Shown: in pieces, positions 23,395 to 28,335 of the stretch
How the letters are laid out: the number at the start of each line of letters is the position of its first letter
How positions within the stretch are numbered: the stretch's first letter is position 1
From: Candidatus Micrarchaeia archaeon
GTDB taxonomy: Archaea > Micrarchaeota > Micrarchaeia > Micrarchaeales > CABMGC01
Direction: 5' to 3'
Assembly (NCBI GenBank): GCA_049966395.1
Contig: JBMFUT010000005.1
Location: forward strand, 1-31,065
DNA: 31,065 nucleotides
Notes under the pieces: generated by a model
Told to the model about the DNA's origin: nothing
What the model saw: only the letters and a program-made list of their open reading frames with translations
The model's database searches: none
Translations under genes and position numbers: made by a program

Positions 23395-24300
23395 TCAGCC
23401 GAGGGTGGCTATTATGCCGTCTATTATGCCGTGCACTCCTACGCCGCCTGTAGACCTAACTGCTATCCTGTGGCTCAGCACTGGCGTTGCAAGGAACTTT
23501 ATGTCGTCTTTCGTAACTTTATTCCTTCCTTCGGCCAATGCCTTGGCCTTACCGCACTGCATGAAGGCTATGTCTGCCCTTGGGCTCGCGCCCATTACAA
23601 CGTGTATGTCTGTCCTGGTTGCGTTGACTATGGCTGTTATGTATCTTGCCACGTCGTCTGGCATCTCGACCTGCTTTGCCTGCTGCTGCATGTCAATTAT
23701 GTCGCTTGTTGTTATTATCTTGTTCACCGCGATCTTTTCCTCTCTCTCCTTTATGCGCAGCATCTCCTGCTCTTCTTCCATGCTCGGATATGAAACATCT
23801 ATCTTCATTATGAACCTATCAGCAAGAACCTTAGGCAGAGGCTCAGTGCCTTCTATCTTGAGAGGATTTTGAGTGGCGAATGCTGTAAAAGGCTTCATGA
23901 GAGGCATGTCCACGCCGCCAACAGTCACCTGCCGCTCCTCGAGGCTTTCCAATAATGCGCTCATGGTCTTTGGGGGCGCCCTGTTGAGCTCATCCACAAG
24001 CAGTATGTTGGTGAATATCGGCCCCCTCTTGAACTTCACCTCGCTGCCCTCCGAGTAGGTGTAGCCTATTATGTCGCTTGGCTCAAGGTCTGGGGTGCCC
24101 TGTATCCTCTTGAAATCCGCCTGTATGGTAGAAGCGAGCGCCTTTGTCATTGTAGTCTTAGCCACTCCAGGCACGCCTTCCAAAAGCGCGTGGCCGTTTG
24201 CCACCAAGGCTATGAATAGAAGCTCAAGGGTCTCCTCTTTTCCAGCAATATGCTTCTTCATTTCTTCCATAACTTTTAAGTATGCATCGTGCGCATCCAA
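23395..24300 (-). CDS. moxR: MoxR-family AAA+ ATPase
   Basis: LLEGVPGVAKT, RIQGTPDLEPSDIIG, GPIFTNILLVDELNRAPPKT, ATQNP, DRF and GASPRA. TTG 24300 chosen as start because of the GGTG RBS. Confidence 0.93.
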   Translation of the reverse strand: MDAHDAYLKVMEEMKKHIAGKEETLELLFIALVANGHALLEGVPGVAKTTMTKALASTIQADFKRIQGTPDLEPSDIIGYTYSEGSEVKFKRGPIFTNILLVDELNRAPPKTMSALLESLEERQVTVGGVDMPLMKPFTAFATQNPLKIEGTEPLPKVLADRFIMKIDVSYPSMEEEQEMLRIKEREEKIAVNKIITTSDIIDMQQQAKQVEMPDDVARYITAIVNATRTDIHVVMGASPRADIAFMQCGKAKALAEGRNKVTKDDIKFLATPVLSHRIAVRSTGGVGVHGIIDGIIATLG

Positions 24301-24327
24301 TGAAACACCAATTACTAAGTAGTCGCA

Positions 24328-24343
24328 GAAAAAGCTTAATAAA
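24328..24343 (+). promoter_or_regulatory. Putative BRE-TATA for rpo4-DUF655
   Basis: 'gaaaaagcttaataaa' upstream of a GGTG RBS and ATG 24387. Confidence 0.45.
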
Positions 24344-24386
24344 CCTAGCACATGTAATATATGAAGCGGATTAAGACGGTGTAGCT

Positions 24387-24725
24387 ATGATAGGAAAGCA
24401 GCACAGCGAACCAAATGCAGTGAGCATGCCCGAGGCGCTCTCAATACTGGAAGAGAGGAAAAAGGAGGGCGAATTAGGCTACGAGCAAGAGATCACGCTT
24501 GAGCACGTCAAGAAGTTCGCAAAGTTGAGCAAGGCAGACGCAGAAAAGATGTCTAAGGAATTGCTGGAATTCGGCCTGAGCAAGAAGGGCGCGGCAAAGA
24601 TCATAGACGTGATGCCAATAAGCGTCCTGCAGCTTAAGCAGGTGCTCATAATAGAAAGGAGAAACTTCGAGGAAGAGACAATAGCCAAGATATTCGAGAC
24701 TATAGAGAAATACAGGAAGAGGTAG
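24387..24725 (+). CDS. rpoF: RNA polymerase subunit Rpo4 (RpoF)
   Basis: 'MIGK...EALSIL...ELGYEQEITLEHVKKFAKL...KIIDVMP'. Followed by DUF655, as in other archaea. Confidence 0.93.
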   Translation: MIGKQHSEPNAVSMPEALSILEERKKEGELGYEQEITLEHVKKFAKLSKADAEKMSKELLEFGLSKKGAAKIIDVMPISVLQLKQVLIIERRNFEEETIAKIFETIEKYRKR

Positions 24726-25618: not shown

Positions 25619-25649
25619 TGAAATCACTTGCAAGCATATTTGCTGAAGA

Positions 25650-25688
25650 ACATTTAAATACCTTTATAAACCATCTCTTTTAAATAAC
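25650..25688. promoter_or_regulatory. Divergent promoter region between rpl21e and the TBP-like gene
   Basis: Palindromic TATA-like words atttaaat (25652-25659) and tttataaa (25663-25670). Confidence 0.5.
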
Positions 25689-25702
25689 TTATGTGTGGTG
25701 CA

Positions 25703-26011
25703 ATGGCAAGCAAGAAGAAAGTTGCGATTCATCCTGATTTTAGGGTCGAGAACATAGTTGCAAGCACTGACTTGGGAGTCGACCTGGACCTTTACGCTAT
25801 AGCTAAGGCCTCCCCTGACATAGACTACGAGCCTGAGCAGTTCCCTGGGGCAATATGCAAAATACACGAGCCCAAGGCGGCGCTCCTGCTCTTCAAGAAC
25901 GGCAAGATAATATGCACAGGGGCAAGGACAGAGTCAGACATAAGGAAAGTGATAGACCAGGTAATAAAAATAGTCAAGAATCATACTATACAGTCTAAGA
26001 CTCCGGAATAG
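25703..26011 (+). CDS. tbp: Single-repeat TATA-box-binding protein (half-TBP)
   Basis: 'VENIVASTDLGVDLDL..IA...YEPEQFPG...EPKAALLLFKNGKIICTGAR' occurs only once in 102 aa. GGTG RBS before ATG 25703. Confidence 0.88.
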   Translation: MASKKKVAIHPDFRVENIVASTDLGVDLDLYAIAKASPDIDYEPEQFPGAICKIHEPKAALLLFKNGKIICTGARTESDIRKVIDQVIKIVKNHTIQSKTPE

Positions 26012-26013
26012 GG

Positions 26014-26652
26014 TCATCCTCTTATCCTGGACATTGCCGCCCTGTAGATCACATACAGCGCTATCCCGAATGCCGCAACTGCGACAGACATTATTAGTAT
26101 GTTGCTCTGTGCCGAAACTGCATAAGTGCCGAAAGCGTAGCCGAATAGGAGGAGTGCTATGTCCCATATGGCTGCGCCAAGCATCGAATAAGAGTAGAAC
26201 TTCCTCTTGTCCATGAGCGCAAAGCCTGCAGGGAAGTTTATCAGCCCCCTTACTAGAGGAAGCATCCTAGACACGAATACGGCGAATGCACCGTTCCTCT
26301 CGAACCACCTGTCGAAGGCATCAAGAGATTCTTTCTTTATGTGGAAGAGGCGCAGGTGCTTGTATACAATGTCCTTGCCTATGAAATAAGCGATGTAGTA
26401 GTTTATCGCCATTCCTACGAAGCTTCCTATCAGCACCACGACTATCGTGAATGGAAGGTATAGCGATCCTTGAGATGAAAAATATCCCGCCACTGGAAGC
26501 AGCAGCTCGCTGGGCACCGGAAGTGACGCGCTTTCCAGTATCATGAGCCCTAGTATCGCGGCGTAGCCGTATGCGTGTATGAATGCCGAGAGCGACGAGT
26601 AGGTCGAGGCGAAAATCGAAGAGATTGCCGAAAGCGCTATCACTCTTAGCAT
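26014..26652 (-). CDS. dedA: DedA family membrane protein
   Basis: 'LESASLPVPSELLLPVAGY', 'WFERNGAFAVFVSRMLPLVRGLINFPAG'. A TATA-like TTTATATA lies ~25 nt upstream of ATG 26652. Confidence 0.93.
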   Translation of the reverse strand: MLRVIALSAISSIFASTYSSLSAFIHAYGYAAILGLMILESASLPVPSELLLPVAGYFSSQGSLYLPFTIVVVLIGSFVGMAINYYIAYFIGKDIVYKHLRLFHIKKESLDAFDRWFERNGAFAVFVSRMLPLVRGLINFPAGFALMDKRKFYSYSMLGAAIWDIALLLFGYAFGTYAVSAQSNILIMSVAVAAFGIALYVIYRAAMSRIRG

Positions 26653-26847
26653 AAGAAAAGATTTGAACTGCAATATATAAATCTCTTGCACAGCAGCGCA
26701 TCACTCAGTTTGCCTAAGCGACTTCATTTAGCATAAGGCGCCGCGAGGTAGCTTCGATGTAAGTAGCGGGGAATATGCAGCATTGTATAGCAGTTTAAAA
26801 GTCTGCCTTTTCAATATATAGATGTGCATTGGGTTTCGGGTGGCGCA

Positions 26848-27285
26848 ATGACAACTGTAGAAGACTTGAAAAGGGGCTTCGAATTCATAGAAAGAGTGAG
26901 GGAGGAGACTGTCAAAAGCGTTTTTAGCGAGCTCGGCGCTGCAGTGGACGCTGCAGATGTGCAAGACATTAGCAAGGATGAACTTGTCAAACGCATAAAG
27001 GAAACAATCGATAGAATCGCTGAAAAATACGCCAAGGAAAAGAGTGTCGAGGAAGCTGAAATAAGGAAAGAGGAGAGCGGATTCAACGATGTGATTGCAG
27101 GCATCGAAAGCACTGAAAAAGAGGCGTATGAAAAGGGCCAAGAGGACGAATACGGCGAGATTTACAACGATATTTACAACAAAGGTTACAACGAGGGTTA
27201 TGCCCATGGAAGCAACGACGGGTATGGAAGAGGGTACAACGACGGTTACAACAAGGGATACAATGACGGTTATAACAAGGTGTAG
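26848..27285 (+). CDS. Acidic helical protein with C-terminal GYxx (FliH/Yae1-like GxxxG) repeats
   Basis: GGTGG RBS. Tail 'YNDIYNKGYNEGYAHGSNDGYGRGYNDGYNKGYNDGYNK'. Confidence 0.75.
   Translation: MTTVEDLKRGFEFIERVREETVKSVFSELGAAVDAADVQDISKDELVKRIKETIDRIAEKYAKEKSVEEAEIRKEESGFNDVIAGIESTEKEAYEKGQEDEYGEIYNDIYNKGYNEGYAHGSNDGYGRGYNDGYNKGYNDGYNKV
27163..27279 (+). repeat. Degenerate 12-nt coding tandem repeat (tacaacgacggt-like, ~10 units)
   Basis: Units such as tacaacgatatt, tacaacaaaggt, tacaacgagggt, tacaacgacggt and tacaacaaggga. Confidence 0.8.
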
Positions 27286-27294
27286 GATGATTGC

Positions 27295-28335
27295 ATGCAG
27301 ATAATAAAATTCTTTGACGCCACCAACACTCTCAAGTGCAGGGCAGACTCATTCGACGACCTTTATCTGCTACAAAGGATAATAGCAAACGGGGACGGCA
27401 TCGCAGCAAAGAGCTTTAGGAGGTTCAAGGCGAACGAAACTGACACAGGCTCCCAGAAGGAGGTCTTCGTCAAGATATCTGTAGAGAAGAGCGAGCTTGA
27501 CAAGACATCTGGCAAGCTCAGGCTCACTGGCAAGATACTTGAAGGCCATCCGGAGGAATTTGTCAAGATTTCAAGCTACCACACCATAAATGTTGGAATC
27601 GGCGACGTCATAGAGATACAAAAAACGGAATGGAGGCATTACATAATAAGGAGGTTAAAGGAAGCGGTAGAGGAAGCAAAAAGGCCTCGCTTTGGAGTGA
27701 TAGCCATGGATGACGAGCTCGCTACAATAGCTTACATACGCGGATATGGCATAGAGATAGTAGCTGAAATATACAGCCACTTGAGCAAGAGAATGAAGGA
27801 CAAGGAGTACGCAGAACAGAGGAAAAAGTATTTTGACGAAGTGATTGCAGCTGCGACACGCCTCGAAGTTGACAATATTGTGGTGGCAGGACCCGGATTC
27901 ACGAAAGATGACCTCAAGGCTTACATGGAGTCTGAACGCATATCCTTGAACAAGAAGATTTCTTATGTGCATGCAAGCAGTGCCGACAGGGCGGGGATCA
28001 GAGAAGCGATGCAGAGCGAGGATGTTGCAAGGCTTCTCGAGAGCGAGCACCTAAAGAAGGAATTCGCGCTGCTCAACAAATTCCTCGAATCGCTGCGTGT
28101 TGGCGCTGCATTCTACGGAGAGGAGCAGGTTGGAGGGGCATTAGAGTCGTTCAAGGCGGGAGTAGTGCTCGTTAACGATGACATGATAAACAATGCAAAA
28201 ACCCAGGAGCTCCTCGAAAGAGCAGACGCACAAAAGGTTAAAATAGAAATATTCAATTCTGACGATGAAGCAGGCGCGCAGCTCAGGAATTTCAAAGGCA
28301 TCGGCGCAATTTCGAAATCGGTGTTGCAGCAATAG
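27295..28335 (+). CDS. pelA: mRNA surveillance / ribosome rescue protein Pelota (Dom34)
   Basis: 'DDLYLLQRII..GD', 'LRLTGKILEG', 'YHTINV', 'VVAGPGFTK' and 'EAGAQLRNFKGIGAI'. Confidence 0.95.
   Translation: MQIIKFFDATNTLKCRADSFDDLYLLQRIIANGDGIAAKSFRRFKANETDTGSQKEVFVKISVEKSELDKTSGKLRLTGKILEGHPEEFVKISSYHTINVGIGDVIEIQKTEWRHYIIRRLKEAVEEAKRPRFGVIAMDDELATIAYIRGYGIEIVAEIYSHLSKRMKDKEYAEQRKKYFDEVIAAATRLEVDNIVVAGPGFTKDDLKAYMESERISLNKKISYVHASSADRAGIREAMQSEDVARLLESEHLKKEFALLNKFLESLRVGAAFYGEEQVGGALESFKAGVVLVNDDMINNAKTQELLERADAQKVKIEIFNSDDEAGAQLRNFKGIGAISKSVLQQ

Follow-up and report, generated by a model that had tools for sequence, protein, structure and literature searches.

Can a protein that holds half of a TBP serve as the TBP of an archaeon? 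The question is raised by a short gene in the DNA analysed here, a stretch of 31,065 nucleotides (the window) from a Micrarchaeota genome of 693,655 bases in 34 contigs that is 89% complete (G000, the source genome). Canonical archaeal TBP is a single chain of about 180-200 aa in which two PF00352 repeats follow each other in tandem (e.g. PDB 1PCZ/1AIS, 2Z8U, 1MP9), and TBP is the textbook pseudo-symmetric protein, thought to go back to a homodimer whose gene was duplicated and fused. The gene in question, called A below, does not have two tandem repeats in its polypeptide; it has one repeat in 102 aa. A second single-repeat gene of the same genome, on contig C17, is called B.

25703..26011, + strand: gene A, single-repeat TBP; an ORF of 102 aa plus stop, with one Pfam PF00352 repeat

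The start codon of A is an ATG at 25703 and its stop is a TAG at 26009-26011. Another in-frame ATG at 25691, 12 nt 5' of this start, would add 4 residues; the start at 25703 is preferred because the orthologues begin with MAK or MAS and basic residues. In a Pfam search, residues 12-93 of A matched positions 1-84/85 of PF00352 with 98.9 bits (cut-off 22.9) and an E value of 1.4e-28, far above chance, which bears out an earlier, sequence-only reading of this DNA that had seen a single complete TBP repeat in the 102-aa ORF. The same reading held that both intercalating phenylalanines are retained, and F47 (in EQF) and F64 (in LLF) are indeed invariant in 39/39 A-type orthologues, which are 44-79% identical to A; N17, V19, L62, I70 and T72 are likewise invariant in all 39. 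We take these positions, F47 and F64 included, to be DNA-contacting positions in the solved TBP-DNA structures. The stirrup YEPEQFPG (Y42-G49) is also invariant among the A orthologues. In A as in B it aligns with the C-terminal repeat of the Pyrococcus woesei TBP, where the N-terminal repeat reads YNPEEFPG, and it is presumably of the acidic, TFB/TFIIB-binding type that belongs to the C-terminal repeat. An AlphaFold2 model of A, built on the 39 orthologues, had a mean pLDDT of 87.3 and the element order S1-H1-S2-S3-S4-S5-H2. Foldseek with this model returned 44 solved chains at E<=0.001, every one of them a TBP, and the model superposes on one half of the solved TBPs (TM 0.71-0.79 by query, about 0.45 by target), to whose repeats A is 38-44% identical.

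Two matches to the TBP repeat were found in the source genome, A on contig C5 and B on contig C17. B is a single-repeat ORF of up to 109 aa that scores 86.1 bits to PF00352 and is 44% identical to A. A six-frame search of the whole genome, using a profile of 172 repeats with all filters off and covering 8469 frames of at least 40 aa, gave just these two TBP repeats, at 141 and 134 bits, and the next match had an E value of 0.8; neither a two-repeat TBP nor a third repeat was found in it. The A locus thus conceals no second half, frameshifted or otherwise, as the earlier reading had maintained; the genome search for a full-length TBP or a second half that it suggested gives the single-repeat B. 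The counterparts in B of the invariant positions of A (N28, V30, F58, I73, F75, I81 and T83) are invariant in 31/31 B sequences, and so are all residues of its YEPEQFPG stirrup but E56, which is at least 90% conserved. Pairwise dN/dS (pairs with dS of 0.05 to 1.5 were used, most pairs being saturated) had a median of 0.14 for A over 88 pairs and likewise 0.14 for B over 47 pairs, and by these sequence comparisons both genes are under purifying selection. A TFB dedicated to B was also sought and none was found: there is a single TFB gene in the source genome, on contig C2, and likewise one in nearly all of its relatives, with or without B.

The distribution of the two genes was surveyed at several levels, with incomplete MAGs making up most of the genomes. 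The order was represented by 41 genomes from 38 genera and 3 families, the source genome included, three of them closed into single contigs. A TBP match was present in 41/41, the 72 listed matches lying in separate open frames of 98-274 aa. The fetched frames that were scanned held one repeat each, the sole exception being a tandem in genome G018 that is cut by the end of its contig. Apart from this partial tandem, no two-repeat TBP was found in 41/41 genomes searched in the order, closed ones included. Two of the closed genomes (G032 and G039) carry two single-repeat genes hundreds of kb apart, and the third (G017) has one match.

In the family of the source genome (f1), 114/118 genomes had a match and the pattern follows genera. 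Eleven genera (g18, g21, g11, g39, g4, g12, g20, g40, g25, g113 and g3), with 58 matching genomes, have exactly one match in 57 of the 58; in the exception, G243, two equal matches of A-like type were found. Among the 58 are the closed genomes G017 and G122. The nine one-match genomes for which the locus was fetched are A-type or basal, and the rest are A-like by score alone, that is above about 100 bits, B genes scoring 86-93 bits. In 17 genera of f1, the source genus among them, most genomes have two matches, and one genome (G005, 88% complete) has a B-type gene only. The sister family f3 has kept both A and B in 15/15 genomes of the order survey and in 23/24 of the class survey. Across the class, 158 of 161 genomes of at least 80% completeness had a match. 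A two-repeat TBP, in frames of 190-220 aa, occurs in families f5, f10, f13, f14, f16 and f19; one single-repeat gene occurs in f4, f6, f7, f8, f9, f11, f12, f15, f17, f20-f23, f25-f27 and f29; and two separate single-repeat genes occur in f3 and part of f1. The unpublished genome G038 is counted in the order, class and TFB tallies, and the unpublished G193 in the family tally; none of the conclusions depends on these two, and G038 was omitted from the scripted analyses. Relatives of A were also found at 80 loci (54-83% identity, each matching over about one repeat length), in records named Candidatus Micrarchaeota, Micrarchaeia or Micrarchaeaceae with a few Marsarchaeota and one bacterial bin. 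At E<=1e-10, A has at least 773 relatives of 56-179 aa among the proteins in public databases. Many measure about 93-130 aa, with 70-85% identity to A, and the name given is 'hypothetical protein' in some records and TBP in others.

Longer proteins with A-type repeats are found as well. Four of them (P0001-P0004, 195-196 aa) are made of two A-type repeats, each pair 85-91% alike, with 71-75% identity to A, and in the tree they nest among the B-less genera. A model of P0001 (pLDDT 90.9) forms a full TBP saddle, with TM 0.84 by query and up to 0.93 by target; such a predicted saddle is to be expected from the likeness to solved TBPs and taken alone is weak evidence. A further two-repeat form, in genome G074 of family f7, has repeats that are each other's nearest relatives and 85% alike. 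Among 46 longer matches none was a fusion with B, the best one reaching 51% identity.

The tandem in G018, a genome of the same family as the source genome (locus L015, at the end of contig G018:C39, minus strand, frame 2-412), has two A-type repeats in one frame. The final 33 residues are identical between the copies, with 98/99 nt the same. At the point where the second copy has its stop the first has none, and its frame continues (…YILEPQEEKR…). The tandem has the look of a duplication and fusion of very recent date, and an assembly artefact is also possible.

We propose, with moderate confidence, that A is the single-repeat TBP of this lineage, that it acts as a dimer and can pair with itself, and that B is a later paralog serving as an optional subunit. 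One A chain would be half of the saddle, and two chains, paired through their central strands, would together restore the DNA-binding saddle of ten strands, which would then bind the TATA box and recruit the single TFB of the source genome. With both stirrups of the TFB-binding type, TFB could dock on either side. In archaea the polarity of a promoter is fixed by the contact between BRE and TFB, and this contact would set the direction of transcription here also. Self-pairing would give A2, and B as an extra subunit would allow A:B and/or B2, all three being conceivable in the source genome. We infer dimerisation, DNA binding, TFB binding and the role of B alike. Self-pairing of A is favoured because B is missing from 11 genera that keep an A-like gene, closed genomes included, because natural A-A fusions exist (P0001-P0004 and the G018 tandem, with G074 as a further two-repeat form), and because no longer protein with a B-type repeat was found.

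The sequence-only reading had offered three roles for A, and they fare differently. That A modulates a main TBP finds nothing to act upon, since neither the source genome nor any of the 41 genomes searched in the order, three of them closed, yielded a two-repeat TBP. For heterodimerisation with another half there is now a candidate partner, B on contig C17, which lay outside the DNA available to that reading. Homodimerisation gathers the most support of the three, from the 58 genomes in 11 genera and from the A-A fusions. Because B has been lost in many genera we propose that it is an accessory and not an obligatory subunit. Against an optional B stands the fact that it is as constrained as A and has kept the DNA-facing residues and the stirrup. 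The retention of B throughout or nearly throughout f3, and in most genomes of the 17 f1 genera, suggests that its role is important, and perhaps obligatory, where it is present.

An alternative would be a TBP split in the strict sense, with A and B as the obligatory halves of one heterodimer, perhaps derived from the N- and C-terminal repeats. We regard this as less likely. The source genome has exactly two different single-repeat genes, both conserved at the same median dN/dS, and all 15 f3 genomes of the order survey carry both, as such a split would have it; evidence against an obligatory pair comes from 11 genera of f1, in whose 58 genomes (two are closed) B is missing and the A-like gene is kept, and from the fusions, which are of A with A and never contain B. 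The phylogenetic evidence was obtained from a careful IQ-TREE analysis of 71 repeat domains (LG+C20+F+G4) on an alignment of only 85 columns. Its best tree recovers B with support 100/100 and A with 96/79, makes A and B sisters at 99/94, and places the pair inside a 25-row clade of single-repeat TBPs (96/85), contrary to what a split into first and second repeats would give; a quick tree of 172 rows agrees with it. AU tests rejected none of the constraints, with p 0.143 for R1|R2, 0.147 for A+R1|B+R2 and 0.095 for A+R2|B+R1, so the two arrangements that a strict split would produce both stand. Scored with HMMs of the two repeat types, the difference of R1 minus R2 was +3.5 +/- 2.4 bits for A, a weak lean to first repeats, and +0.1 +/- 2.2 for B, which thus bears no second-repeat signature when set against the references of +11.2 for true first and -8.6 for true second repeats, both inflated by having been scored on their own models. 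With two solved TBPs the C-terminal repeat gives B a slight advantage in score (66.9 versus 50.7 and 63.0 versus 59.5 bits), whereas with the Sulfolobus acidocaldarius TBP it is the N-terminal repeat on which B scores higher.

To return to the reading with an optional B, the best tree makes it most likely that a single-repeat gene was duplicated in the order's ancestor and that B is the product. In a tree of the three neighbour proteins, which recovers the order at 99 and one main group of two-repeat families at 82 with its backbone unresolved, genera without B are scattered among those with A+B, and B has therefore been lost more than once. Since the AU tests reject neither A+R1|B+R2 nor the reverse, fission of a two-repeat gene may still lie behind the pair, duplication being the more likely of the two on these thin data.

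The two-repeat TBPs of the wider group show a further peculiarity. In those of the class (L171-L182) together with the DPANN proteins P0104, P0105 and P0112, the repeats are 54-73% identical within a protein. For the two-repeat TBPs of the class Micrarchaeia alone the identity of R1 to R2 is 58-73%, compared with 43% in an unrelated archaeal TBP (L184), and in the IQ-TREE tree R1 forms the sister clade of R2 in several lineages. This suggests either that the repeats have undergone gene conversion or that duplication and fusion have taken place several times over. Tentatively, and giving it slightly less credence than its opposite, we consider that the TBP of Micrarchaeota may have gone back to the proposed ancestral state, a symmetric homodimer of one-repeat chains, and that the later steps of TBP evolution have been run again in different branches, a duplication giving A+B in the source genome and in-frame A-A fusion giving P0001-P0004, the G018 tandem and G074. 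Given the repeat identity of 58-73%, even the 'normal' two-repeat TBPs of the class may be secondary re-fusions. A bolder view, on which this lineage has kept its one-repeat state as a primitive one, is less likely.

A three-repeat TBP homologue, P0005 (283 aa), has its tandem repeats in one chain, and in the quick tree these group with Diapherotrites/Iainarchaeia-like TBP repeats.

The position of A in the genome was examined by BLAST of its neighbours in the window against the ORFs of 109 fetched loci. The neighbours are the following.

24387..24725, + strand: RNA polymerase subunit Rpo4 (RpoF), Pfam PF03874
24738..25328, + strand: DUF655 / helix-hairpin-helix protein, Pfam PF04919, 203 bits
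25325..25633, - strand: ribosomal protein L21e, divergent from A, Pfam PF01157
26014..26691, - strand: ORF of a VTT/DedA membrane protein, convergent with A, Pfam PF09335

The numbers of loci at which they were found are as follows.

A-type loci (n=39): L21e 36, DUF655 27, Rpo4 18, DedA 19
Two-repeat TBP loci of related families (n=14): L21e 12, DUF655 12, Rpo4 12
Single-repeat loci of other families (n=25): L21e 17, DUF655 18, Rpo4 21
B-type loci (n=31): L21e 0, DUF655 0, Rpo4 0, GT4 glycosyltransferase 25

The Rpo4-DUF655-L21e slot that A occupies holds the two-repeat TBP in related families, and since A adjoins the same genes we consider it the positional orthologue of TBP. B belongs to a separate conserved locus, next to a GT4 glycosyltransferase (identified via Pfam) at 25/31 loci and next to L21e at 0/31. 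By sequence, fold and position A is thus a member of the TBP family from which the two-repeat architecture is absent. One could still suppose that A is a decoy or a regulator with the TBP fold, the true TBP being missing from an assembly that is 89% complete or too diverged to be seen, the more so as stand-alone TBP-domain proteins beside a full TBP have been published (PMC3597702). We consider this very improbable in view of the 41/41 genomes of the order in which no two-repeat TBP was found, closed ones included, the place of A in the TBP slot, its identity of about 40% to solved TBP repeats, which sets it apart from the diverged proteins of Thermococcales, and the failure of the six-frame search of the source genome to give a third, weak match.

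The stop codon of A lies 2 nt from that of the convergent VTT/DedA gene, as the sequence-only reading had correctly pointed out. That A is a pseudogene, was truncated recently or owes its end at 26011 to misassembly can be dismissed, with same-length orthologues next to DedA at 19/39 A loci in independent assemblies, 80 loci in named Micrarchaeota records matching at single-repeat length, and A under purifying selection. Short public contigs (three DNA runs from one study) cover 25703-25975 and 26013-26322, and none of them spans 25975-26013. The comparison with same-length relatives and their dN/dS that the earlier reading had called for came out in its favour: as orthologues of the same length occupy the same slot across the order and the median dN/dS is 0.14, A is a genuine stand-alone single-repeat TBP gene, neither truncated nor misassembled.

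Upstream, A shares its spacer with the divergent L21e gene, and the following elements were noted there.

25634..25702: spacer of 69 nt common to A and the divergent L21e gene, with candidate TATA boxes and GGTG
25652-25659: candidate TATA box ATTTAAAT, read from the sequence
25663-25670: candidate TATA box TTTATAAA, read from the sequence
25679-25686: candidate TATA box TTTAAATA, the most enriched upstream 8-mer of the source genome
25697-25700: GGTG, just 5' of the ATG of A

Any assignment of an individual box to A or to L21e is one that we would infer. The palindromic TATA words of this spacer had been given some meaning in the sequence-only reading, and this could not be upheld: the words are ordinary among promoters of the source genome, whose TATA consensus is TTTAAATA with a median centre at about -29 from the start codons (promoter EM seeded with TTTAAATA), and the same consensus is found in the A-only genome G122 and in the two-repeat genomes G118, G057 and G152. 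TATA matches in tandem upstream regions were forward-only versus reverse-only at 17:8 in the source genome (p 0.11) and 5:3 in G122, and at 6:4, 9:7 and 3:6 in the two-repeat genomes G118, G057 and G152 respectively, and palindromes make up 5-8% of AT-only 8-mers in every genome compared. No difference in TATA orientation or palindromy between single-repeat and two-repeat genomes was seen, in a comparison that had no power.

Compared with known systems, A shares with canonical archaeal TBP the sequence and fold of the repeat, the two phenylalanines per repeat, the YEPEQFPG stirrup and the L21e/DUF655/Rpo4 slot. It differs in having one repeat per chain, so that a saddle would need two chains, symmetric (A2) or mixed (A:B), and the system has no covalent link that fixes the order of the halves. 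Proteins with one TBP domain have been described by Brindefalk et al. (2013, PMC3597702), who report monopartite proteins in Halobacteria (TbpA) and in Thermococcales, in every case with a full-length TBP in the same genome, TbpA being non-essential and the Thermococcales group far diverged from TBP. Like these proteins, as far as they are described there, A is a complete stand-alone gene with a single TBP domain, in the class of about 80-140 aa; unlike them it sits in the TBP slot of a genome in which no full-length TBP was found, and it is close to the canonical repeats. Small archaeal genomes are known to have split genes, for example those of the split large RNA polymerase subunits (PMC7289017), and here too one function would come from distant loci (A on C5 and B on C17). 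The difference is that A and B are paralogues on the best tree, not N- and C-terminal parts, and that one of them is dispensable in many genera. In the full-text literature, subscription journals lying outside its coverage, we found no paper on a one-repeat or split TBP in Micrarchaeota or DPANN, and comparative papers on DPANN, in the parts accessible, merely list TBP as present (PMC8407392, PMC8204110).

The lineage would be of high interest for the evolution and the mechanism of transcription initiation. No organism running its transcription on a one-repeat TBP is described in the searchable literature, again with subscription journals outside its coverage, and here one-repeat (A only), two-subunit (A+B) and re-fused (A-A) forms are held side by side. 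Whether a symmetric TBP is sufficient for directional initiation could be tested directly with a few recombinant proteins, as could the share of BRE and TFB in promoter polarity and what the covalent linkage of the halves adds. There is a bearing on annotation also, as many such proteins are public as 'hypothetical protein' and may be counted as fragments by marker sets in which a TBP is expected to measure about 180 aa.

Some minor observations were made along the way. A search for tRNA genes across the window found none. The ORF at 26824-27285 (+) encodes 153 aa with a C-terminal low-complexity tail of GYN(D/E/K)GY repeats, and its match to Yae1_N is below threshold (21.9 bits versus a cut-off of 27.5). 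Ordinary neighbours are a Pelota/aRF1-type protein with eRF1 domains 1-3 at 27295-28335 (+) and a MoxR-type AAA+ ATPase at 23395-24351 (-). Genome G065 (family f8, 2 contigs) has three single-repeat TBP genes on one contig (L152, L153 and L154), one of them in the TBP slot and two extra near-identical copies elsewhere (tree support 100), a paralogue expansion independent of A and B. Finally, L184 is a 191-aa two-repeat TBP with long branches and without the synteny of the TBP slot, on a contig of 3.7 kb (G100:C77); genome G100 (f1) has its own A and B beside it, and the contig is probably the DNA of another archaeon binned with this MAG.
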